Shown here: positions 1 to 33,875 of the stretch, piece after piece
Layout: each line of letters starts with the position of its first letter
How positions within the stretch are numbered: position 1 is the stretch's first letter
Assembly (NCBI GenBank): GCA_964528645.1
Contig: CAZGSR010000004.1
Location: 3,523 to 67,522 of the forward strand
DNA from: an uncultured Mageeibacillus sp.
GTDB lineage: Bacteria > Bacillota > Clostridia > Saccharofermentanales > UBA5734
Direction: 5' to 3'
DNA: 64,000 bases
Made by a program: the position numbers and the translations under genes
The notes under the pieces: model-generated
Database searches by the model: none
Told to the model about the DNA's origin: nothing
What the model saw: only the letters and a program-made list of their open reading frames with translations

Positions 1-2566
1 TGGTGGCACTGAGCTGAGAATGGCCCTTGCAGGTGCTCCAGAGGTTGCTCTTACGGTCAAGGCATTCATCGATCAATGGCAGCAAACCACACTGGAGCAG
101 GAACGCCTCGATCTGGCAGCCTCTTTGCGGTCGGACGTACTGCCAGATGTGGACTGGCTTTTTGAGCAGCGGCAGATGTGTACGGACATCATCCACAACA
201 TGCCGGCTCTGAAAACCTGGATGAACTACCGCAGTGTAGCGGATGAGGCAGCAACATCTGGAATCAAGGTGGTGGTCCAGGCTTATGAGTCCGGTCTCGA
301 GCATGATCGTGTCCTCCCTGCCTATCAGAAGGCCGTCTACCAGGCCCTGATCATCACCACCATCGAAAGCGAAGAGAGCTTGAACCGGTTCTCCGGACCG
401 GTCTTCAATAAAAAAATCGAGCAGTATAAAAAAATCGACACCGAGCTTACTGAGATAACCCGGCAAGAGATCTATTGCCGGTTGGCGGCCAAAGTACCTG
501 ATTTCACCACCGAAGCGGCAAACAGTTCAGAACTGGGCATTCTGCAGCGAGCCATCCGCAGCAGCGGCCGTGGTATGAGCATCCGCCACCTTTTCGAACG
601 GATCCCCAATTTGCTACCCCGCCTGTGCCCGTGCATGCTGATGAGCCCCATTTCTGCCGCCCAATATCTGGATCCCAAGCGAGCACCGTTTGATCTGGTC
701 ATATTTGATGAGGCATCCCAGATTCCGACCAGCAAAGCGGTCGGAGCCCTGGCTCGTGGCCGGGAAGCCATCATTGTTGGTGACCCGAAGCAGATGCCGC
801 CAACCAGCTTTTTCATGGGCAGCAACATGGATGAGGAGCATTTCGAAGCTGAAGATCTCGAAAGCATCCTCGACGACTGTCTGGCTCTCAGTTTCCCCGA
901 GTCGCACCTGCTCTGGCATTATCGCAGCCGCCATGAGAGCTTGATTGCCTTTTCCAACAGCCAGTTCTACGAGAACAAATTATTCACCTTCCCTTCTGTC
1001 AATGATCGCGCATCGAAACTATCCTTTGTTCCGGTTGAAGGCTGTTTCGACCGCGGCAAATCGAGGCAGAACCGGGCCGAAGCAGAAGCGGTTGTAGCTG
1101 AACTCATCCGGCGGTTTGAGACCACAGGTGCACAAGCAAAAAGCATCGGTGTGATCACGTTCAACATCAACCAGCAGAACCTGATCGATGACCTGTTTAC
1201 GGAGGCTTGTGCCAGTAATCCTGCACTGGAAGCCTGGGCTTATGACGGCGCAGAGCCGTTGTTCATCAAGAACCTGGAAAACGTCCAAGGCGACGAGCGT
1301 GACATCATTTTGTTCTCGATCGGATTTGGCGCGGATAGAGACGGCAAAGTTTTCATGAATTTTGGTCCTCTCAACCGGGAAGGTGGCTGGCGGCGGCTCA
1401 ATGTCGCTGTATCCCGGGCCCGGAACGAAATGATGGTCTTCTCTTCACTCCAGCCCGATCAGATCAATTTATCCAAAACCAGTGCTCAGGGTGTCAGTGC
1501 CCTGAAGTCGTTTCTCGACTATGCCCGCAGTGGTATCCTGCCGGTCACCGAGCAAGTCAGTCAGTCAGTCAAATCCAGCACGACCGGCACCATCAGGAAT
1601 GTCTGCCTGGCGTTGCAGCAGGCGGGCTATCAAACAGACGTTGCGATCGGCCAGTCCAAATACCGGATCGACATCGGTGTCATTGATCCTGCCAATCCGG
1701 ACAGTTACCTGCTGGGCATCCTCTTGGATGGCGAGAGTTACGGTCAGGCCAAGTCAACCCGCGACCGCGAGATCGCACAGCTCAAAGTACTATCTGGCCT
1801 GGGCTGGACCATCCATCGGATCTGGTCAATGGACTGGTGGGACAACAAGGAGCAGGAAATCACAGCCATCCTGGCTAAGCTGGAGAATCTGATCCAGCAA
1901 CGGACTACGGCCGCAAAGGATGTCTTGATCCAATCGTCTGCCAGCACCAGTCAATGGAACATGCAGCCTCCCAAAGCTGAAAAAACGGGGCGATCAGTCA
2001 CTAATTATCAAACAACCACCTTGAGCCATCCAGCGATGACTCCCGAAGACTATCTCAGTCCTGCTACAACGAAACAGATCCGTCAAGCCTTCAAATCTGT
2101 TATCGATACCGAAGCTCCTATTTCGGAAACCCTGCTGATTCGTCGGGTGTTGCAAAGCTTTGGCATCTCACGGGCAGGCAGCAGAATCCAAAGTAAAAAC
2201 CAGGCCATCCTGAATCAGCTAAACTACCCATGCACCATCCAGGGCGACTCGACCTTCTACTGGCGTCCAGACCAGAATCCAGTAACCTATGCCGAATTTC
2301 GGTCCGTGGGCGGTGGCAGCGACATCCGGGAGGCCCGTGATGTCCCCTTTGAAGAAGTCGCTGTCGCAATCCGCCAAGTTCTGGAAGATCAGATCGGACT
2401 GCCAGAAGATGACCTGATCCGCGAAACAGCCAAGAAATTAGGGTATTCACGCAGTGGCAACCAGGTGATCGCCATGGTCCGTGGAGGTATCCAGATCGCC
2501 CTGGTAAAAGGATCCATCACTAAAGACGACCGGGGTCACTACATCATTCACCAGTCTTCCATCTGA
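1..2566 (+). CDS. C-terminal ~850 aa of a very large SF1 (Upf1-like) helicase-related protein with an endonuclease-like block and a DUF3320-type tail; the 5' end lies outside the window
   Basis: The frame of ORF 20..2566 stays open back to base 2. SF1 motifs are present: FDLVIFDEASQ, VGDPKQMPPTSFF, HYRSRHESLIAFSN, QGDERDIILFS, NVAVSRAR. These are followed by YRIDIGV...HRIWSMDWW (restriction-endonuclease-like) and a long C-terminal region. Confidence 0.8.
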   Translation, partial: GGTELRMALAGAPEVALTVKAFIDQWQQTTLEQERLDLAASLRSDVLPDVDWLFEQRQMCTDIIHNMPALKTWMNYRSVADEAATSGIKVVVQAYESGLEHDRVLPAYQKAVYQALIITTIESEESLNRFSGPVFNKKIEQYKKIDTELTEITRQEIYCRLAAKVPDFTTEAANSSELGILQRAIRSSGRGMSIRHLFERIPNLLPRLCPCMLMSPISAAQYLDPKRAPFDLVIFDEASQIPTSKAVGALARGREAIIVGDPKQMPPTSFFMGSNMDEEHFEAEDLESILDDCLALSFPESHLLWHYRSRHESLIAFSNSQFYENKLFTFPSVNDRASKLSFVPVEGCFDRGKSRQNRAEAEAVVAELIRRFETTGAQAKSIGVITFNINQQNLIDDLFTEACASNPALEAWAYDGAEPLFIKNLENVQGDERDIILFSIGFGADRDGKVFMNFGPLNREGGWRRLNVAVSRARNEMMVFSSLQPDQINLSKTSAQGVSALKSFLDYARSGILPVTEQVSQSVKSSTTGTIRNVCLALQQAGYQTDVAIGQSKYRIDIGVIDPANPDSYLLGILLDGESYGQAKSTRDREIAQLKVLSGLGWTIHRIWSMDWWDNKEQEITAILAKLENLIQQRTTAAKDVLIQSSASTSQWNMQPPKAEKTGRSVTNYQTTTLSHPAMTPEDYLSPATTKQIRQAFKSVIDTEAPISETLLIRRVLQSFGISRAGSRIQSKNQAILNQLNYPCTIQGDSTFYWRPDQNPVTYAEFRSVGGGSDIREARDVPFEEVAVAIRQVLEDQIGLPEDDLIRETAKKLGYSRSGNQVIAMVRGGIQIALVKGSITKDDRGHYIIHQSSI

Positions 2567-2577
2567 CCCCCCTCCCC

Positions 2578-2841
2578 TCATACCTCGACCCACCAGCGCT
2601 GGTCGTAGACCAGGACGAAATCGCGGTGGTCAGAGCGGATGACATACCGCATGCCACTCTCCTCGTCGTAGTCTTTCCTGGCCTTGATCGGCTGGGCAGA
2701 GAGGATCCGTTTGACCGGGATCCGCTGGTCCTGGGCAATCACCTCGAGCGGTCTGAACTGCCCCTCATACACCTCGGCAATGACCCTGACTCCTATCCGT
2801 TCCACATCACGCACCTGCCTCTCAAATCGGACTTGAACCAC
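2578..2841 (-). CDS. Small hypothetical protein (87 aa, no TM segment), probably SOS-regulated
   Basis: The ORF has a GTG start 13 nt downstream of a consensus -10, so it is near-leaderless. It converges on the helicase stop. The C-terminal pattern MRYVIRSDHRDFVLVYDQRWWVEV looks like a small beta-rich domain that I cannot place. Confidence 0.4.
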   Translation of the reverse strand: MVQVRFERQVRDVERIGVRVIAEVYEGQFRPLEVIAQDQRIPVKRILSAQPIKARKDYDEESGMRYVIRSDHRDFVLVYDQRWWVEV

Positions 2842-2854
2842 CGTTGTGAGATTG

Positions 2855-2882
2855 ATTATAGAACATTTGTTCTCTTTTTCAA
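2855..2882 (-). promoter_or_regulatory. Sigma-A type promoter TTGAAA-16-TATAAT with a LexA (Cheo) box GAACAAATGTTC filling the spacer
   Basis: On the minus strand the sequence reads cacTTGAAAaagaGAACAAATGTTCTATAATcaatctcacaacgGTG. The box occupies plus coordinates 2861-2872 and matches the Firmicutes LexA consensus GAAC-N4-GTTC. It abuts the -10 element. Confidence 0.6.
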
Positions 2883-2926
2883 GTGTCCCGGGCTACCAAA
2901 CAGCGCTTGTATAAATTGCAGAATAA

Positions 2927-3244
2927 TCAAATGTCAATGCTTTTTCTAAGGCATGCCTGCAGGCTATCGACTTTAAAGCTGGCACGATCAACCTCTATAT
3001 TGCGCTGGACTTCGCGCCTCTGGAGTATAAACCGGGCGATGTCCGGATCCTGATCGATAACAACGAGGAGATGCGGATCAGCCGCATCGAGCGCTTCGAG
3101 GAGGGTCGTTTTACCCTATCTTCAATCGTCGGATCTGACTTTTTCGATCCAAAAGGCAATATCCGCTATTTGGACACCAAACCGGGGTCTGGTGGATTGT
3201 CTGATTTTGAAGCCAAACTTATTGCCATTTATGAGGAGGCTTGA
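2927..3244 (+). pseudogene. 5'-truncated remnant (about 105 codons, no usable start) of the gene upstream of mcrC; presumably the C-terminus of an McrB-like AAA+ GTPase
   Basis: Frame 2 is open from the TAA at 2924-2926 to the TGA at 3242-3244. It reads ...DFKAGTINLYIALDFAPLEYKPGDVRILIDNNEEMRISRIERFEEGRFTLSSIVGSDFFDPKGNIRYLDTKPGSGGLSDFEAKLIAIYEEA*. There is no ATG, GTG or TTG before codon 49. The stop lies 3 nt before the mcrC ATG, which is operon-style coupling. Sequence upstream of 2927 switches to AT-rich promoter DNA. The McrB identity is inferred from context only. Confidence 0.4.
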
Positions 3245-3247
3245 TGG

Positions 3248-4525
3248 ATGGGTCACCTCCGGACGATCCGAATTTTTGAAGATACCGCAATCAATTTAGC
3301 ACTGTCAGATCAGGAAATTCGCGATATTCTGGCGTTGCGTTCCGTTATTGGTGATCACGCTGTCAATTTACAGGCCGACGGTCGGCTTCTGATGAGTCAT
3401 TACGTTGGATTTGCTCAGATCAATCGTACACGTCTCTTGATTTACCCGAAATATGCCCGTGCGATCGATCATGAAGAGGGCTGGAATCAGTCCTTCGATA
3501 TCTTGCTCAAATTACTGCTGGAGACTGGCTTTCTAGGGGTCAAACAACTTCCTACGGCCCAGGAGATGGCACAATGCCAAGGTGATATCCTGGAAATTCT
3601 CATTTCACTGTTTATCAAGGAACTTCTGCGTCTATTTCAACGTGACGTCAACCGAGGTTATCAAGACACTCATTCTAATGAACCCTTTGTCCGCGGCAAA
3701 ATCGATTTTGCCAACCATATCCGGCACAACAGCTATCGAAAACACATCCATGCATTGATCTACGAACACTTCACTGAAAACATCCTGATGAACCAGATAT
3801 TCAAATCGGTTCTGCTCCAGTTAGGGCAAATCTCCCGCTTGCGTGAGAACCGGATTCGCATCGGTCAGGCCTTGATCTGGCTGGAAGACATCGAAACGAT
3901 CACCCTGACCGATACGATCTGGGATCAGGTTGTGTTCACCAGATTGAATCATCCGTATCAGGTGCCTTTTCGCATGGCTCGTATGTTTTATCAGAATGCA
4001 TCGATCATTTTGAACAGTGGAGATTCCCAGTCGCTGAGTTTCCTTGTCCCGCTCAACCGGTTATTTGAGCAATATGTGTATAAAATTATTAAAGAGGCAG
4101 CAAGTCCTCTGGACCGCGTTGTGTATCAAGGACCTGTCGATTATCTGGCCTTTTATGGAGATAAACCTGCGTTTCAATTGCGTCCGGACATCAGCGTGAT
4201 CCGCCAGAATCAGGTGTACCAGATCTTCGATGCCAAGTATAAAGAGATCGCGTTTGTTGATCAAATACCAAAAATTGCGATGGGCGATCTCTACCAGATG
4301 CTGGCCTATAGCGTCCGATACGATTGTGCATTGATCACCTTAGTTTACCCGGCCATGATGGGGCAAACTTGCGACGAACTCATGGTATCAAGTTTATCTG
4401 TCCCTATACAGGGGGAAAATCTGACAATTCGGATCGTGCTCATCGATTTGCAGCAGGAGATTATTCAGACAGTCCACAAGTGGCGAGATAGGCTCGAGCA
4501 GGAGCACAACTGTCATCCAGTCTGA
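3248..4525 (+). CDS. mcrC: McrC-like subunit of a McrBC-type modification-dependent restriction system (PD-(D/E)xK nuclease)
   Basis: 425 aa. The C-terminal nuclease core reads LRPDISVIRQNQVYQIFDAKYKEI...MGDLYQMLAYSVRYDCALITLVYPA, which fits the McrC pattern PD...D-x-K-Y-K...DLYQM-x-AY. Confidence 0.7.
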   Translation: MGHLRTIRIFEDTAINLALSDQEIRDILALRSVIGDHAVNLQADGRLLMSHYVGFAQINRTRLLIYPKYARAIDHEEGWNQSFDILLKLLLETGFLGVKQLPTAQEMAQCQGDILEILISLFIKELLRLFQRDVNRGYQDTHSNEPFVRGKIDFANHIRHNSYRKHIHALIYEHFTENILMNQIFKSVLLQLGQISRLRENRIRIGQALIWLEDIETITLTDTIWDQVVFTRLNHPYQVPFRMARMFYQNASIILNSGDSQSLSFLVPLNRLFEQYVYKIIKEAASPLDRVVYQGPVDYLAFYGDKPAFQLRPDISVIRQNQVYQIFDAKYKEIAFVDQIPKIAMGDLYQMLAYSVRYDCALITLVYPAMMGQTCDELMVSSLSVPIQGENLTIRIVLIDLQQEIIQTVHKWRDRLEQEHNCHPV

Positions 4526-27458: not shown

Positions 27459-27467
27459 TGGTATAAT
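27459..27467 (+). promoter_or_regulatory. Extended -10 promoter (TGgTATAAT) for the riboswitch-led surface-protein gene
   Basis: The sequence reads attaTGgTATAATaaaag, about 10 nt before the predicted aptamer 5' end. Confidence 0.45.
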
Positions 27468-27476
27468 AAAAGCGAG

Positions 27477-27570
27477 ATGGGGGCATTGACAACAGAGGGA
27501 TTATATGGACGCTTTCCCTCTGTCGAGCCAGCAGCGTAACCGACCATGATTGTTATGGTCGGTTTTTTTC
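27477..27570 (+). promoter_or_regulatory. Riboswitch-like leader 1 (aptamer 27477-27547 plus intrinsic terminator 27539-27570); resembles the c-di-GMP-II class
   Basis: AUGG...CCAU closes the element. A 9-bp helix forms between 27492-27500 and 27515-27523. Loop ACGCU (27509-27513) can pair with AGCGU (27533-27537). The conserved tail is GAGCCAGCAGCGUAACCGACCAU. The terminator stem ACCGACCAU/AUGGUCGGU plus U7 shares its left arm with the aptamer 3' strand. A paralogous copy lies at 31975-32070. Confidence 0.55.
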
Positions 27571-27597
27571 GTTAAGTCATGAAGGGAGTGATCAATA

Positions 27598-28788
27598 ATG
27601 AGTCGCAGAAACAGGTCATTAAAACGTCTCTTCGCCCTACTTTTCGGAACCATTCTGATTATCAGCAGCTTGGTAACAGTAAGTGCAGAAAACATGGAAA
27701 TCGTATTTGATCCCGGAATTCAGCTTGATAAAGTGGGTGAATTCCAGGATGATATCGTGGACGATGGCTTTGCGCAGCCCGGTGAAAAAATCAAATACAC
27801 CTATACGGTAGAAAACACCGGAACGATTCCATTGTACAACATCACACTCGTCGATGATGTCCTTGGAACAATTGCCGACGGCGATCCATTGCTTTTGCCT
27901 CCGATTGCTTTGAATGTTGTTGTGTTCACAGCGTATTACACGCTGACAGCAGCCGATATTGAAAATGGCAGCGTCACGAATCAGGCAACCGCAACAGGCT
28001 GGTTTCCTTGTTGGCAGGACCTTGATATGCAAGTCAGCCGCTGTCTAGACATCGGCGACGGCGATTGCGACGACGACGACGGCGATTGCGACGACGACGA
28101 CGACGGCGATTGCGACGACGACGACGGCGATTGCGACGACGACGACGACGGCGATTGCGACGACGACGACGGCGATTGCGACGACGACGATGATGATTTC
28201 GGATGTTCAGTTTCTGATGATGCGACCTGCACAGTCCTGCTTACGCCAGAGCCAGAAGATGGTGACGATGATGATGATGATGACGATGACGAAGAACGGT
28301 CAAGCGGAGATCCTGATGTAGATCTGGTCAAAACGGTGGATAAAACCAGTGCTAATGAAGGTGAGACTTTCACGTTCACAATCACAATCCACAATACCGG
28401 TGATACAAAATTCTCGATCACGGAACTGACCGATACCAATCTGAGTCCTTTGCCTGCAAATTTGCAAGAGCTGATTGGCATGGAAATTCCGGTCGACGGA
28501 AGCCTTACCAGAACGTACACCATCGTTCACAACGATGCTGGCACCTACCCGAATACCGCAGAAGTCAAGATCAGTGACGTAAACGGGAAAAAGGATTTTG
28601 ACAATGAATCCGTTACTGTTACCGTCAACGAACTTGAGGTGCAGGGTGCTATGATGGTCTTTGGTGCCGAGATGCCTCAGACAGGCGATGGTCCTGACGT
28701 CTTCTCAATCGGTGGTCTCATTATCCTGATCGTTGCTGGTGGTTCGCTGTGGCTCTTGTACAAGAAGAGCACGAAATCCAATTCCTGA
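27598..28788 (+). CDS. Secreted cell-wall-anchored protein: signal peptide, DUF11-type repeat domains, Asp/Cys-rich repeat region, C-terminal MPQTG sorting signal
   Basis: The signal peptide is ...LVTVSAEN. The segments PGEKIKYTYTVENTGTIPLYNITLVDD and ANEGETFTFTITIHNTGDTKFSITELTD are DUF11-like. (GDCDDDD/GDCDDDDD)x6 is followed by a D9 run. The C-terminus is AEMPQTGD, then a hydrophobic helix, then KKSTKSNS. Confidence 0.8.
   Translation: MSRRNRSLKRLFALLFGTILIISSLVTVSAENMEIVFDPGIQLDKVGEFQDDIVDDGFAQPGEKIKYTYTVENTGTIPLYNITLVDDVLGTIADGDPLLLPPIALNVVVFTAYYTLTAADIENGSVTNQATATGWFPCWQDLDMQVSRCLDIGDGDCDDDDGDCDDDDDGDCDDDDGDCDDDDDGDCDDDDGDCDDDDDDFGCSVSDDATCTVLLTPEPEDGDDDDDDDDDEERSSGDPDVDLVKTVDKTSANEGETFTFTITIHNTGDTKFSITELTDTNLSPLPANLQELIGMEIPVDGSLTRTYTIVHNDAGTYPNTAEVKISDVNGKKDFDNESVTVTVNELEVQGAMMVFGAEMPQTGDGPDVFSIGGLIILIVAGGSLWLLYKKSTKSNS
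28060..28197 (+). repeat. Perfect in-frame tandem repeat, alternating 21- and 24-nt units (ggcgattgcgac(gac)3-4), encoding GDCDDDD(D) six times
   Basis: The units are 28060-28080, 28081-28104, 28105-28125, 28126-28149, 28150-28170 and 28171-28197. The first five are identical apart from one extra gac. Confidence 0.9.
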
Positions 28789-28866: not shown

Positions 28867-29733
28867 TCAACCGATGAACAACTGCTCGATGTAGGTTGTA
28901 CCATTCTTGATCGTACGGCTGACAGCAATCCCGGAATAAGCCGCATTCATGATGTTCTTCCGGTGAGATGGCGAATTGAGCCAAGCTGAGACGATGCATT
29001 CTGGCGCACTCTCCTCGGAGGTGTCAATGGCATAATTCTCACCGCTGGCAGTCACAGATAAATTGATTTCTGCCAGGACTGTATAAAAGGGATCACCGTT
29101 CGGCCGCAAATGCGGGGATGGGCTGCTCGGCAATTCCAAGACCCGGATATCGGCTGCCTGGCACAGAGTGCCATGCAAAGTGAGCGCAGGTAAGCCATTT
29201 TCCTTGCGTGCCGCATTGGTCAGACGGACCACCTCATTGACAAAGCCATCTGTTGACTCGACAACTAAAACCACTGGCTCCGGGGCGGGCAGAGTGACAA
29301 CTGCAGGGGCCGTTTGTGCAGGTTTGTTGCTTGTGGGGACGGGTGTAGGCTCTGTCTTAGGTTCAATCTGGCGTTCAGGAGCCGAACGGCTGACAAGTTC
29401 TGGTTCTACCAAGGGCAGTGGCGACTCATGAGCTGGCCAGGGATCCTGTGCCGTTGGGTATTCACCCCAGATTGAGTTCTTGGCCTCTGCGATCCAGTCG
29501 GATACCTGGCAGGAAGGGTCTGATTCAACGGACTCTGCATGCAGGTTCAGCTGAGATCCATTCGCAATGGAAATGAAAAGAATCACGAGAACGATAAAAA
29601 AACGGAAAAGAATGACAAATGGAAACGGCCGGGTTTTCAAATGTGGTTTCAAGATATGGAATCCTTTCTGCGGTTGTTGATCTCGTTGAAAACCACAGAA
29701 GCCAGATAGGATAATAATGTCGAACCATTCCAC
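28867..29733 (-). CDS. Secreted CAP/SCP (PR-1-like, YkwD-type) domain protein, paralogue 1
   Basis: The C-terminal CAP core reads GENYAIDTSEESAPECIVSAWLNSPSHRKNIMNAAYSGIAVS...EQLFIG, preceded by a Pro/Thr-rich linker and a signal anchor. A TTG at 29652 with GAAAGGA upstream is a likelier start than the track start 29733. Confidence 0.75.
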   Translation of the reverse strand: MEWFDIIILSGFCGFQRDQQPQKGFHILKPHLKTRPFPFVILFRFFIVLVILFISIANGSQLNLHAESVESDPSCQVSDWIAEAKNSIWGEYPTAQDPWPAHESPLPLVEPELVSRSAPERQIEPKTEPTPVPTSNKPAQTAPAVVTLPAPEPVVLVVESTDGFVNEVVRLTNAARKENGLPALTLHGTLCQAADIRVLELPSSPSPHLRPNGDPFYTVLAEINLSVTASGENYAIDTSEESAPECIVSAWLNSPSHRKNIMNAAYSGIAVSRTIKNGTTYIEQLFIG

Positions 29734-29848: not shown

Positions 29849-30760
29849 CTATCCAACAAAGAGTTGGATAAAATAGGCTTTGCTATCATAGACGAAATAA
29901 CCAATGCCAATCTGCGTAAACTGGCAGCCCAGGATATTGCTCCTGTGGGCTGGTGAATCCAGCCAGGCCGCAACAATCGCTTCGACTGAGAATGCACCGG
30001 CAGTGGCACAGGCGTAATTCTCAGCACAGGCCTGCATCGTGATGGCATATTCCGCGAAAACCGTGTAAAAGTCGCGTCCATCAGGACGCTGGTGTGACTT
30101 GAAATCAGCCAGTTCTTTGACCCTGCACAGGGCTGCCTGGTCCAAGCTGCTGCTCACCGAAAGTGCTGCAAGTCCTGCTTCCTGTCGGACTAGATTGGTC
30201 TCTGCCAGAATTGCAGCAGTAACAGCCGCAAAATCCAACACTGCGCTTGTTTCTGCGGATTTTGTCTCAGGCATTGCCTCTGCTGGGCAACTCGTTGGCT
30301 GTGTGGTTTCAGGGGTCGTTTTGGCAGTTTCGCCGATGGGTGGTTCAGTTGGAACAGGAGTTGGTACAGGAGTTGGTACAGGTGTCGGAGTCGGTTTTGG
30401 CGTAGGAGTCGCAGATGGTTTTGGCGTGGGTTTCGAGGTCGGAAGCGAAGTTGGAATACCAGTCGGTACCGGATCAGGCTCCAGTATCTGGGTTGTCGAT
30501 TGAACATCATATGAAATATCCGTAGTGTCAACCGCAGTTGCAAGGATCACAGTCTGTACCAAATGATCCCTCACCGGTTCGACTGTTTTTGTATCATCAG
30601 GCATGGTCTGGGCTGCAACCGGTTGGGGACGTTCGATTCCCTCCCCTACTGCCAAGGACGCCGGCGTAATAAACTGGCCAGGGGTTCCCTCATGCCAGGC
30701 TACAGCAGCTAACAGAATCGGTATGACCAAGATGGCAATAAAAAATAATCTACGGATCAT
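29849..30760 (-). CDS. Secreted CAP/SCP domain protein, paralogue 2
   Basis: AENYACATAGAFSVEAIVAAWLDSPAHRSNILGCQFTQIGIG...IQLFVG. There is a (PTPKPxxT) linker. The start is placed at Met 30760 (MIRRLFFIAILVIPILLAAVA) rather than 30793. Confidence 0.75.
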   Translation of the reverse strand: MIRRLFFIAILVIPILLAAVAWHEGTPGQFITPASLAVGEGIERPQPVAAQTMPDDTKTVEPVRDHLVQTVILATAVDTTDISYDVQSTTQILEPDPVPTGIPTSLPTSKPTPKPSATPTPKPTPTPVPTPVPTPVPTEPPIGETAKTTPETTQPTSCPAEAMPETKSAETSAVLDFAAVTAAILAETNLVRQEAGLAALSVSSSLDQAALCRVKELADFKSHQRPDGRDFYTVFAEYAITMQACAENYACATAGAFSVEAIVAAWLDSPAHRSNILGCQFTQIGIGYFVYDSKAYFIQLFVG

Positions 30761-30953
30761 CTCACAACCCTTGCACATAAGGCGGTCAACCACATGCGAT
30801 CAGAGAATCGAAAAACGAGATGTCAGCACCGGTCGATTGAGTTTTCGATGATCCTATCCTACCATGACTGAGCAGAACGAATGATGGGTTATGATTAACT
30901 TTGGATTACAATTTCCTATCTTTTGGGGCAAAGAACCTGGTTCTGAAGCAATA

Positions 30954-31778
30954 TCACTTTTTCGCCTTTCGGGCAACCACAACCATCCGACCTTCATCAA
31001 TGTGATAACTGCACGTTGAAAGTGTCAAAAGCTGGTCGCCAAAGACGGGACGAATGCCCGTGTCATAGAGAGACAGTTTTCGAACTTGATCTACATAGTC
31101 GTTGAATTCTGCCTCAGTATCAGCCTGGAAAAAACGGTAGTAAATGAATTCCTTTGAGTCCGCCGGGTAAACCTGGGACATGAAAACGGCGAAGATCTCG
31201 TACTCCCCAGTTTCATAGATGGTATCAAACTGGACGATTGGGTGAGAAGTGAAATAGGATCGGCTGTAGTACTTGCCAAGGGTTGCAAACATGCTGCCAT
31301 CCTTCATGTTGTGAGCATGGACAAGAACATTGGTTGAGCGAGGATTGATACTGGAACGATAGTCGACAAACGGCAAGCCATGCTTGCTATCCTTACCTGC
31401 AAAATCACGGTACAAATAGTATTCGCCGTCCTGTGGTGTATACATGACAGGGTAGTCGACTTCGGAATTTTCAATCTTGATCCAGCCAACCAGATCGGGA
31501 TTCTTATCAAATAGCGTTTGGTACTGGGGTAAAACCTCAAGACTCATTTCTGGTGTAGGATCTGGTCCGGATGGCTCTATCGTGGTCACAGGCTCATGAT
31601 CGTCTGGTGCCGTTTCCAGGATGGCTGAGGTCGTCTGGACCGCTTGGACCAGAGAGGATAACTGGCGCAGATTGTTCCGATCCTGGACACTCTGGTAATA
31701 GCCAAAAAGCAGATAACTGACATAGGCAAGAACAGCCATACCATAGAGGACTAATGCAATTCTGAACTTCTTTTTCAT
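30954..31778 (-). CDS. srtB: Class B sortase
   Basis: An N-terminal TM helix is followed by DLVGWIKIENSEVDYPVMYTPQDGEYYLYRDF, VLVHAHNM and LLTLSTCSY (catalytic Cys), then the C-terminal RMVVVARK. Confidence 0.85.
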   Translation of the reverse strand: MKKKFRIALVLYGMAVLAYVSYLLFGYYQSVQDRNNLRQLSSLVQAVQTTSAILETAPDDHEPVTTIEPSGPDPTPEMSLEVLPQYQTLFDKNPDLVGWIKIENSEVDYPVMYTPQDGEYYLYRDFAGKDSKHGLPFVDYRSSINPRSTNVLVHAHNMKDGSMFATLGKYYSRSYFTSHPIVQFDTIYETGEYEIFAVFMSQVYPADSKEFIYYRFFQADTEAEFNDYVDQVRKLSLYDTGIRPVFGDQLLTLSTCSYHIDEGRMVVVARKAKK

Positions 31779-31974: not shown

Positions 31975-32070
31975 ATGGAAGCAGTGAAACTCAGGACGTA
32001 TTGGACGCTTGTCCTGAGAGGAGCCAGTAGCGTAACCGGCCATGTGTATCTAATCAAGGCCGGTTTTTTC
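31975..32070 (+). promoter_or_regulatory. Riboswitch-like leader 2 (aptamer 31975-32043 plus terminator 32034-32070); paralogue of leader 1, resembling c-di-GMP-II
   Basis: The architecture matches leader 1, with a fully compensated helix (CUCAGGAC 31990-31997 / GUCCUGAG 32011-32018). It has the same loop GGACGCUU and the tail GAGCCAGUAGCGUAACCGGCCAU. The terminator AACCGGCC/GGCCGGUU plus U6 follows. Confidence 0.55.
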
Positions 32071-32105: not shown

Positions 32106-32795
32106 ATGAAACGAAAATCTACATTCCTGAAAGTCTATTTCTCGTTCCTGGCCATTTTAGTTTTATCTTTCAATCTGGTCTCCGTGGTTTCTGCAGATGG
32201 ATCACGCAAATCTGACAACAAGTGGAAACCCAAGGTAACCACAACGGCCACCAGATGTGAACCCACGACAAAAGCCACTACGAAAACCACGGAGGAGACC
32301 ACCCAGACTTCGACCGAAGCCACGTCCGAGGAGACCAGCCAGACTCCGACTGAATCCGCGACCGAGGCAACCACCCAGACTACGACTGAATCCACGACTG
32401 AGGCGACCAGCCAGACTCCGACTGAATCCGCGACCGAGGCAACCACCCAAGCTGCGACCGAATCCACATCCGAGGAGACCAGCCAGACTCCGACTGAATC
32501 CGCGACTGAGGCTACCACTGAGCAATCATCTGAAACCACTGCTGCAGCGACATCCGCAAGAACATCATCTACTTCTTCGGTTGCTGTTTTTGGTGAGACA
32601 TTTGTAAGCTCAAATGATCCGACAACGAATTCCATAATCGTTGAAGCCGGTGAAATGCCAAGCACTGGAGATTCAGTCTATCCTGTCAAAGTGATTGCAT
32701 TCCTGACGTTGTTGCTGATCGGTACGTTGCTGATTTTCTGGAAATACAAAATCCAGGAGGAACCCATCAACAAGGATAAAGTGATAAGTCCGTGA
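32106..32795 (+). CDS. Secreted Thr/Glu/Ser-rich cell-wall-anchored protein with a C-terminal MPSTG sorting signal
   Basis: The signal peptide is ...VSVVSADG, followed by 24-aa repeats EETSQTPTESATEATTQTTTESTT. The C-terminus is GEMPSTGD, then a hydrophobic helix, then WKYKIQEE. Confidence 0.75.
   Translation: MKRKSTFLKVYFSFLAILVLSFNLVSVVSADGSRKSDNKWKPKVTTTATRCEPTTKATTKTTEETTQTSTEATSEETSQTPTESATEATTQTTTESTTEATSQTPTESATEATTQAATESTSEETSQTPTESATEATTEQSSETTAAATSARTSSTSSVAVFGETFVSSNDPTTNSIIVEAGEMPSTGDSVYPVKVIAFLTLLLIGTLLIFWKYKIQEEPINKDKVISP
32328..32519 (+). repeat. 72-nt in-frame tandem repeat, about 2.7 copies
   Basis: The units start at 32328, 32400 and 32472 and are nearly identical (gag-gMg-acc-agc-cag-act-ccg-act-gaa-tcc-gcg-acY-gag-gcW-acc-acc...). 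Confidence 0.85.
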
Positions 32796-32888: not shown

Positions 32889-33764
32889 TCAGCCGATGAA
32901 GAGTTGTTCGAAATATTCCTTGTCACCGATGACAGCGTGGCCGATACCGATCTGTTTGTAGGATGCGTTCATGATGTTCTTGCGATGGCCAGGGCTATTC
33001 ATCCAGGCGGTGACGATCTGCTCGGGAGAATAGGCATTGGCGGTGCCGATGGCGTAATTCTCGCCGCCGGTTTTCGGCTTCAGGCCGACTTCGGCAAAGA
33101 CGGTGTAGAACTGGGCACCGTCAGGACGCAGGTGCGGCGAGGGGCTATCAGGCAGTTCGACGACGCGGATGGCGGCAGCTTCCTGAGCATTGCTATTGAT
33201 GGTCAGGGCGGAGAGGCCCTCTGCGGCGCGTGCTTCGTTGACCAGGCGCAGGATCTCATCGGTCCAGTAATCACCGGTGGATTCGATGGCTGCAGGAGCT
33301 TCGGTGGCAACAGGGGCAGGAGCGGCGACGGCTGCGGCTTCGACAGTTGCGGCCGGGGTAGGCTGGGCTTCCTGAGCTTTGACTGGAGCGGCTTCTTCAA
33401 CTTTTTCAACCGGAGCCTCGGTCTTTTTTTCGACTGGGGCTTCTGCCTTGGCTGGCTCGGCTTTGACGGCAGCCGGGGCTGGTGCAGCGGTTTTGGTTTC
33501 AACTTTGGCTGTGGCTTTGGCTTCAACTTTGGCGGGAGCTTCTGTCACGACGGTTTCCGGACGGATGATTTCTGGCCAGGCAACTTCAGCTTTGGGATAT
33601 TCGCCGAAGATTTTCGCCTTGGCCTGGGCGATCTGGTCATGGACGCGGACAATGCCAGCCGCCTGGGCTGTCACGCTGCTGATGCCGATGATGCTGGAAA
33701 GAACGACGGCAGCACTGATGACCTGGAACGCTTTGCGGGCTACGCCGGAAGACAAAAAGGACAT
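32889..33764 (-). CDS. Secreted CAP/SCP domain protein, paralogue 3 (Ala/Glu/Lys/Pro-rich linker)
   Basis: GENYAIGTANAYSPEQIVTAWMNSPGHRKNIMNASYKQIGIG...EQLFIG. The start is placed at Met 33764 (MSFLSSGVARKAFQVISAAVVLSSIIGISSVTAQA), which has GGGAGG 7 nt upstream. The track start 33920 would read through the riboswitch. Confidence 0.8.
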   Translation of the reverse strand: MSFLSSGVARKAFQVISAAVVLSSIIGISSVTAQAAGIVRVHDQIAQAKAKIFGEYPKAEVAWPEIIRPETVVTEAPAKVEAKATAKVETKTAAPAPAAVKAEPAKAEAPVEKKTEAPVEKVEEAAPVKAQEAQPTPAATVEAAAVAAPAPVATEAPAAIESTGDYWTDEILRLVNEARAAEGLSALTINSNAQEAAAIRVVELPDSPSPHLRPDGAQFYTVFAEVGLKPKTGGENYAIGTANAYSPEQIVTAWMNSPGHRKNIMNASYKQIGIGHAVIGDKEYFEQLFIG

Positions 33765-33774
33765 TAAAAAACCT

Positions 33775-33875
33775 CCCAGTTTCGGTAGCTGGCTGCCACG
33801 GGAGATGTCCCAGAGGCCCTTTAGCTTTGCGTCCCAGGTTTTCACCTGGTTTGCCTTTATCGGCTGAAGGCTTAT
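33775..33875 (-). promoter_or_regulatory. c-di-GMP-I (GEMM-I) riboswitch in the leader of CAP paralogue 3
   Basis: The minus strand reads AUAAAGGCAAACC-AGGU-GAAA-ACCU-GGGACGCAAAGCUAAAGGGCCUCUGGGACAUCUCCCGUGGCAGCCAGCUACCGAAACUGGGAGGUUUUUUAAUG. It has the hallmark GGCAAACC, a GNRA-capped P1 hairpin, and GGGACGCAAAGC. The segment AUCUCCCG can alternatively pair with UGGGAGGU (the SD), which is followed by U6. Confidence 0.8.

Follow-up and report, generated by a model that had tools for sequence, protein, structure and literature searches.

Two structured leader RNAs, L1 and L2, in the window (the whole 64-kb stretch of DNA analysed here) are very likely to be transcriptional ON riboswitches of the c-di-GMP-II class. 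They add two new members to a well-characterised class, and their expression platform and gene context are most typical of it. L1 and the region directly upstream of it comprise the following elements:

27459–27467, plus strand: candidate extended −10 promoter TGgTATAAT for L1, from sequence reading
27477–27570: whole structured leader L1, from aptamer to terminator
27477–27547, plus strand: c-di-GMP-II aptamer of L1
27477–27480 with 27544–27547: P1 (AUGG/CCAU), 4 bp
27482–27484 with 27527–27529: P2, 3/3 pairs
27488–27489 and 27525–27526: kink-turn GA
27492–27500 with 27515–27523: P3 (ACAGAGGGA/UCCCUCUGU), 9/9 pairs
27509–27513 with 27533–27537: pseudoknot of loop ACGCU with AGCGU, 5/5 complementary
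27538–27543: pocket tail AACCGA
27538–27569, plus strand: intrinsic terminator of L1, from terminator scan and minimum free energy (MFE) fold

L2 is composed as follows:

31975–32069: whole leader L2, from aptamer to terminator
31975–32043, plus strand: c-di-GMP-II aptamer of L2
31975–31978 with 32040–32043: P1, 4 bp or more
31980–31982 with 32023–32025: P2, 2/3 pairs, the first pair being A.C
31990–31997 with 32011–32018: P3 (CUCAGGAC/GUCCUGAG), 8/8 pairs
32005–32009 with 32029–32033: pseudoknot ACGCU/AGCGU, 5/5 complementary
32034–32039: tail AACCGG
32034–32069, plus strand: terminator of L2, from MFE fold

The sequences that the original prediction quoted for the two aptamers matched the window exactly, and most of what it read from them could be reproduced. 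L1 and L2 have the loop GGACGCUU and the tail GAGCCAGYAGCGUAACCGRCCAU in common. The internal helix P3, described as compensatory, is unlike in sequence between L1 and L2 and fully complementary in each, and the proposed loop-to-tail pseudoknot forms 5 bp in both. The spacer from GGACGCUU to AGCGU, given as 19 nt, had to be corrected to 18 nt by the delimiters of the prediction itself. The kink-turn reads GGC-AUU-GA opposite GA-GCC in L1, with one extra nucleotide past the kink-turn UGA, and AGC-AGU-GA opposite GA-GCC in L2. P1, P2, kink-turn, P3 and pseudoknot are arranged as in the Clostridium acetobutylicum aptamer (3Q3Z) and in RF01786, and the loop-to-tail spacing equals that of 3Q3Z; P1 of both leaders is far below the 11-bp P1 of RF01786. 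Identical copies of L2 were found on three metagenome contigs (L126–L128).

A hexamer scan of the promoter region of L1 returned weaker hexamer pairs only. From the candidate −10 element, which is a perfect extended −10, transcription of L1 would start at about 27473–27476, i.e., 1–4 nt 5' of P1. Since the transcript would then begin just before AUGG, the unpaired outer P1 positions of L1 probably lie 5' of the transcription start and would be absent from the RNA.

The assignment to the c-di-GMP-II class was borne out by the covariance model RF01786, which matched both leaders. L2 scored 54.0 bits in a search of the whole window (E 3.8e-9) at a gathering score of 53.5. L1 scored 51.1 bits with the full model (E 9.8e-11 in a 251-nt search) and was 2.4 bits short of the gathering score because its outer P1 positions are unpaired, P1 having 4 bp only. 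On L1, other Rfam families yielded 19 bits or less each, with a runner-up of 18.9 bits that covered the terminator only. The matches to Hrs13 (the 18.9-bit match), AgrB, Qrr and STnc230 were rejected, as they rest on the generic terminator.

Homologous leaders were collected with the pattern GGACGCTT-N12-30-AGCGTAACCG, using one genome per species, which returned at least 120 stretches. Proper spacing and flanks were found for about 94 among the matches listed (at least 120), while about 25 among 120 matches listed (Proteobacteria, Mycobacterium and others) showed odd spacing and were dismissed as chance. The hosts among the matches listed were Clostridia, Peptococcaceae, Erysipelotrichaceae, uncultured Actinomycetota and candidate-phyla-radiation bacteria. 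When 18 homologue loci were scanned with Rfam, 13 aptamers scored above the RF01786 threshold (54.6–76.2 bits). Thus, the ACGC/GCGU pseudoknot marks an ordinary subtype within the family rather than an outsider, and judged by its occurrence in these sequences it is a common one. Relative to the family consensus GCAC/GUGC, which is also that of the crystallised aptamer, two pairs are swapped in a compensatory manner, in agreement with the covariation that had been predicted. Within the collected set the pseudoknot pairs are invariant because the search pattern fixed them. A neighbouring aptamer that had not been selected by the pattern (L052:3723-3808) carries GCGC/GCGC, which stands between the canonical and the ACGC pseudoknots.

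Covariation was assessed in a gapless alignment of 42 homologues drawn from the matches listed, all from other genomes and without any sequence of the window. Standard pairs accounted for 83.5% of the cells, compared to 63.3% after shuffling. The covariation score was 0.558 vs. 0.166 for shuffled alignments (0 of 500 shuffles reached 0.558), and slid registers gave 0.12–0.17. P2 was paired in 95% and P3 in 96.7% of the cells, with two-sided changes at every pair of both helices; within P1, the inner four or five pairs alone were well kept. The G and A positions of the kink-turn (columns 21, 22, 57 and 58) were 86–100% conserved. Hence, the helices that had been proposed covary among aptamers of other genomes. 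A covariance model built from this alignment (R1) was run over the 64-kb window with filters off and detected L2 with 68.2 bits (E 3e-20) and L1 with 64.5 bits (E 5e-19); the rest of the window contained nothing above 13 bits.

The collected set also showed that ACGC-type c-di-GMP-II aptamers are frequent, among the matches listed, in candidate-phyla-radiation genomes (Saccharibacteria, Komeilibacteria and Parcubacteria; loci L002, L005, L007, L017, L024, L030, L033, L036, L044, L052, L056, L059, L071, L077, L103, L116 and L119). Some of these reach up to 76 bits on RF01786. They have a long P1, and the shared-arm terminator is absent in most, which implies another expression platform. Several genomes carry tandem c-di-GMP-II aptamers on one leader, about 130–290 nt apart (L009:6503-6718, L033:2436-2671, L036, L073:362-737, L111:2475-2769 and L119:2578-2831). 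The tandem of an Acetobacterium woodii metagenome-assembled genome (MAG; L009) has a separate terminator for each aptamer. The second of these aptamers passed the RF03169 threshold alone in gathering mode, yet scored higher on RF01786 (51.8 bits).

Both leaders end in a terminator whose left arm is formed by the 3' tail of the aptamer, as the original prediction had proposed. The stem of L1 (AACCGACCAUGA/UUAUGGUCGGUU, 27538–27564) has 12 bp and a UUG loop, and the hairpin alone reaches −16.3 kcal/mol. It is followed by a run of seven T (27563–27569), the first two of which (27563–27564) end the right arm of the stem. Its left arm covers AACCGACCAU, and positions 27538–27549 correspond to A69–A74, i.e., the pocket tail, plus the 3' strand of P1. 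The terminator of L2 (AACCGGCC/GGCCGGUU, −13.3 kcal/mol) pairs 32034–32041, likewise the aptamer tail plus the 3' strand of P1, with 32058–32065, and its run of six T (32064–32069) also shares its first two letters (32064–32065) with the right arm. The terminator scan missed the hairpin of L2 because its loop is 15–16 nt long. The distance from terminator to start codon is 44 nt for L1 and 37 nt for L2. A shared-arm terminator was present in 62 of the 94 homologues among the matches listed.

The MFE fold of either leader without ligand consists of P3 and the terminator. The terminator conformer reached −30.7 kcal/mol vs. −16.6 kcal/mol for the nested aptamer helices in L1, and −25.7 vs. −12.1 kcal/mol in L2. 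It is thus favoured by about 14 kcal/mol in energies that cover nested helices and leave out pseudoknot, tertiary and ligand terms. Since the left arm takes up A69–A74 and the whole 3' strand of P1, bound aptamer and terminator cannot coexist. From this exclusivity, termination by default and anti-termination by the ligand-stabilised aptamer are predicted, i.e., an ON switch. All four class II riboswitches of C. difficile are ON switches too, with downstream transcripts increased 4- to 43-fold at raised c-di-GMP (PMC6200980), which agrees with the switching direction that had been predicted for the two leaders.

According to the proposed mechanism, the nascent RNA would fold into P1, P2, the kink-turn and P3, and the P3 loop ACGCU would pair with AGCGU of the 3' tail to form the pseudoknot. 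c-di-GMP would then be held in a pocket made up of the tail AACCG and nucleotides next to it. The same AACCG tail, together with the 3' strand of P1, would serve as the left arm of the intrinsic terminator. When the ligand is absent, the more stable terminator hairpin would form and transcription would end before the gene. When c-di-GMP is present, the tail would be kept in the aptamer, the terminator would be blocked and RNA polymerase would enter the gene. We infer that both leaders bind c-di-GMP and that high c-di-GMP levels switch the surface proteins on in vivo.

The ligand pocket was numbered after 3Q3Z by means of a construct sequence that we take to be the crystallised one; the letters of all 13 contacts fit it. 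The c-di-GMP contacts in 3Q3Z (n = 13) are A13, A14, U37, G39, U60, A61, the C68–C72 run (C68, A69, A70, C71 and C72), G73 and A74 (PMC7288161). With this numbering, eight of the 13 are identical in L1 and L2 (U37, G39, A61, A69, A70, C71, C72 and G73). Position 68 is U in both leaders, and the change of G40 to A compensates for it, so that the pseudoknot pair is kept (A-U at 40:68 vs. G-C in 3Q3Z). Pair 42:66 is G-C in both vs. A-U in the crystal. At pair 14:60, A-U in 3Q3Z, L1 has the G-C of the Rfam consensus and L2 an A.C mismatch. The two leaders also differ at position 13 (G27481 in L1, A31979 in L2) and at position 74 (A in L1, G in L2), the latter being variable across the family. Among the 42 homologues, 30 have A at position 13, eight have G, three have C and one has U. 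Both G13 aptamers of a Clostridia MAG (L058) scored above the Rfam gathering score (56.6 and 60.5 bits). On these counts, G13 is a recurrent minor variant. As far as the letters can tell, G13 of L1 and the A.C at 14:60 of L2 are further pocket changes beside U68/A40. It is a slim chance that the A40-U68 (ACGC/GCGU) subtype differs in ligand affinity or specificity from the crystallised GCAC/GUGC form. If it did, the two switches of the island would have different response thresholds or another dinucleotide as their ligand, and the same would apply to the many copies of this subtype found in Clostridia, uncultured Actinomycetota and candidate-phyla-radiation bacteria.

It is highly improbable that the c-di-GMP-II fold of the leaders serves another ligand, e.g., another cyclic dinucleotide, accommodated by the changed pocket nucleotides. 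Such a reading could draw on U68/A40 in both leaders, G13 in L1 and the A.C at 14:60 in L2, and C68, A13 and the A14-U60 pair are listed contacts of 3Q3Z (PMC7288161). However, the change at 40:68 retains a Watson-Crick pair, and A69, A70, C71, C72, G73, U37 and A61 are intact. The variants RF03169 (c-di-GMP-II-GAG) and RF03170 (c-di-GMP-II-GCG), which share fold and clan (CL00127) with L1 and L2, have Rfam families of their own. Such variants were reportedly proposed by Weinberg et al. in 2017 as possible sensors of other signals. An ACGC-type homologue, the L009 aptamer mentioned above, clears the RF03169 threshold alone in gathering mode. On both leaders, by contrast, the canonical RF01786 is the best match of the clan: the overlapping matches of the variant models are lower on L2, and in gathering mode L1 gave no match to RF03169 or RF03170, with scores below their thresholds. 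ACGC-type aptamers score up to 76 bits on RF01786, and the sortase-anchored surface-protein context is the classical one of c-di-GMP-II (PMC4591827, PMC6200980). Canonical c-di-GMP-responsive ON switches are preferred for L1 and L2.

That L1 is decayed or very weak and blind to its ligand, 27538–27569 being a constitutive attenuator or terminator and L2 the sole working switch, is improbable, if slightly less so. Its score below the Rfam gathering score, the G at A13, the extra nucleotide past the kink-turn UGA, the 4-bp P1 and the unusual strength of the 12-bp terminator (−16.3 kcal/mol) would fit decay. On the other hand, P2 (3/3), P3 (9/9), pseudoknot (5/5), the G.A pairs of the kink-turn and the AACCG tail are intact, and L1 reaches 64.5 bits on the subtype model R1. 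G13 recurs in 8 of 42 homologues, among them both passing L058 copies (56.6 and 60.5 bits), and a gene permanently behind a strong terminator would stay unexpressed. Hardly credible is a superficial likeness, in which a mere stem-loop with a terminator, or an sRNA, would lack ligand sensing. The MFE fold alone does consist of P3 and the terminator only, and weak matches to sRNA families such as Hrs13 (18.9 bits) lie over the terminator; these are far under their thresholds and rest on its generic features. The covariance-model E-values are 1e-9 to 1e-19, the conserved unpaired nucleotides fit the family consensus, and the helices are compensated between two copies that are 4.5 kb from each other, either of them located 5' of a similar surface-protein gene. 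This reading is effectively refuted by the covariance-model scores and the covariation among homologues. Counted against c-di-GMP-II ON switches in both leaders are the 2.4 bits missing for L1 and its G at A13, the A.C at the ligand-contact pair 14:60 of L2 and the 4-bp P1 of both.

The two leaders belong to an island with the following further features:

27582–28788, plus strand: regulated gene 1 (ATG 27598; ORF list), including the Shine-Dalgarno sequence AAGGGAG at 27582–27588
28867–29733, minus strand: secreted CAP-domain (PF00188) protein, first of three paralogues
29849–30793, minus strand: second paralogue
30954–31778, minus strand: class-B-like sortase between both regulated genes (Pfam Sortase 1.5e-10)
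32106–32795, plus strand: regulated gene 2 (ORF translation)
32889–33764, minus strand: third CAP-domain paralogue
33780–33864, minus strand: c-di-GMP-I-GGC variant riboswitch, RF03167 (67.4 bits vs. a gathering score of 59)

Gene 1 encodes a secreted protein of 396 aa with DUF7507/DUF11 domains (Pfam DUF7507 8.9e-25, DUF11 6.8e-9). Its C-terminus carries an MPQTGD signal, a hydrophobic segment and a basic tail, and scored 18.9 bits on NCBIfam LPXTG_anchor (cutoff 15.9). An exact look-up of this protein found no identical protein on record. Around residues 150–200 (window positions about 28040–28200, plus strand) it has an Asp/Cys-rich tandem repeat, (GDCDDDD)n, with a poly-Asp/Glu stretch behind it, which could be a metal- or Ca-binding spacer. 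Gene 2 encodes a secreted, T/E/S-rich low-complexity protein of 229 aa that ends in MPSTGD and a hydrophobic segment; its single Pfam match was below cutoff, a low-complexity effect. The sorting signals GAEMPQTGD (28680–28788, plus strand) and AGEMPSTGD (32700–32795, plus strand) are unusual in being MPxTG, not LPxTG or (S/P)PxTG. The adjacent sortase, which scored 138.3 bits on the NCBIfam class B sortase model TIGR03064 (under the cutoff of 153.75), is presumed to be the enzyme for these MPxTG substrates. It probably anchors the products of both genes, whose display would depend on it. In the Clostridia MAG L058, a G13/ACGC aptamer lies 5' of a protein ending in FGAEMPTTGD (L058:2772-3656, minus strand); thus, at least one relative has kept this arrangement. 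Among the matches listed, the genes downstream of the other homologues code mostly for proteins with a signal peptide.

The CAP-domain paralogues have Pro/Thr/Ala-rich linkers, and their genes are interspersed with those of the sortase and its presumed substrates. A riboswitch precedes the third CAP gene only: the RF03167 element lies 15 nt 5' of this secreted CAP/YkwD-like gene (start codon 33764). In its MFE fold, the Shine-Dalgarno sequence GGGAGG and a U-run pair with the 5' strand of the second hairpin of the aptamer, which suggests a translational ON switch. We know of no resolved ligand for the c-di-GMP-I-GGC variant class, and the proximity of this element to two canonical c-di-GMP-II switches may offer a useful clue to the ligand. 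The island is flanked by the chromosomal housekeeping genes mutS2, pfk, dnaE, uvrB and recG. Look-ups of UvrB and of the sortase returned identical proteins on metagenome contigs only. GGDEF or EAL genes were not among the 20 window proteins scanned, so that c-di-GMP metabolism of the organism is an assumption. The start of the window (20–4525, plus strand) is occupied by a defence-like cluster, in which an AAA_11/AAA_12 helicase with an MTES_1575 nuclease domain and DUF3320 is followed by an McrBC component.

The closest functional parallels are found in C. difficile. There, an allosteric group I ribozyme with a c-di-GMP-II aptamer was reportedly described by Lee et al. in 2010; its aptamer class is that of L1 and L2, whereas here the intron is absent and the platform is a plain intrinsic terminator. 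The C. difficile riboswitches Cdi-2-3 and Cdi-2-1 precede CD2831 and CD3246, respectively, both SrtB substrates that are switched on (PMC4591827, PMC6200980). They are of the same class as L1 and L2 and likewise exert ON control of sortase-B-anchored surface proteins; the ACGC/GCGU pseudoknot sets L1 and L2 apart from them. A C. difficile class I riboswitch turns off the releasing protease ZmpI (PMC4591827, PMC6200980); a PPEP-1/ZmpI protease was not seen in the present case. Both organisms have a class I-type c-di-GMP riboswitch nearby; unlike in C. difficile, the one found here is a GGC variant and precedes a CAP-domain protein. The sorting signal is MPxTG vs. (S/P)PxTG in C. difficile, and the cargo, a DUF7507/DUF11 protein and a T/E/S-rich protein, is unrelated to that of C. 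difficile. Among the c-di-GMP riboswitches predicted in C. difficile, a subset only, mainly of class I, is functional in vivo; this counts against the proposed function of L1 and L2, as does the lack of GGDEF or EAL genes among the window proteins scanned. Unlike C. difficile, the host of L1 and L2 is uncultured and represented by metagenome contigs only.

L1 is a good member of the family, yet owing to its short P1 it would escape standard Rfam annotation by 2.4 bits. Neither this miss nor the spread of the circuit alters existing knowledge of the class. If both leaders act as proposed, the C. difficile-type c-di-GMP-II "adhesin ON" circuit is also present in an uncultured Clostridia-like bacterium, where it would operate with another sorting signal, MPxTG, and with other cargo proteins.
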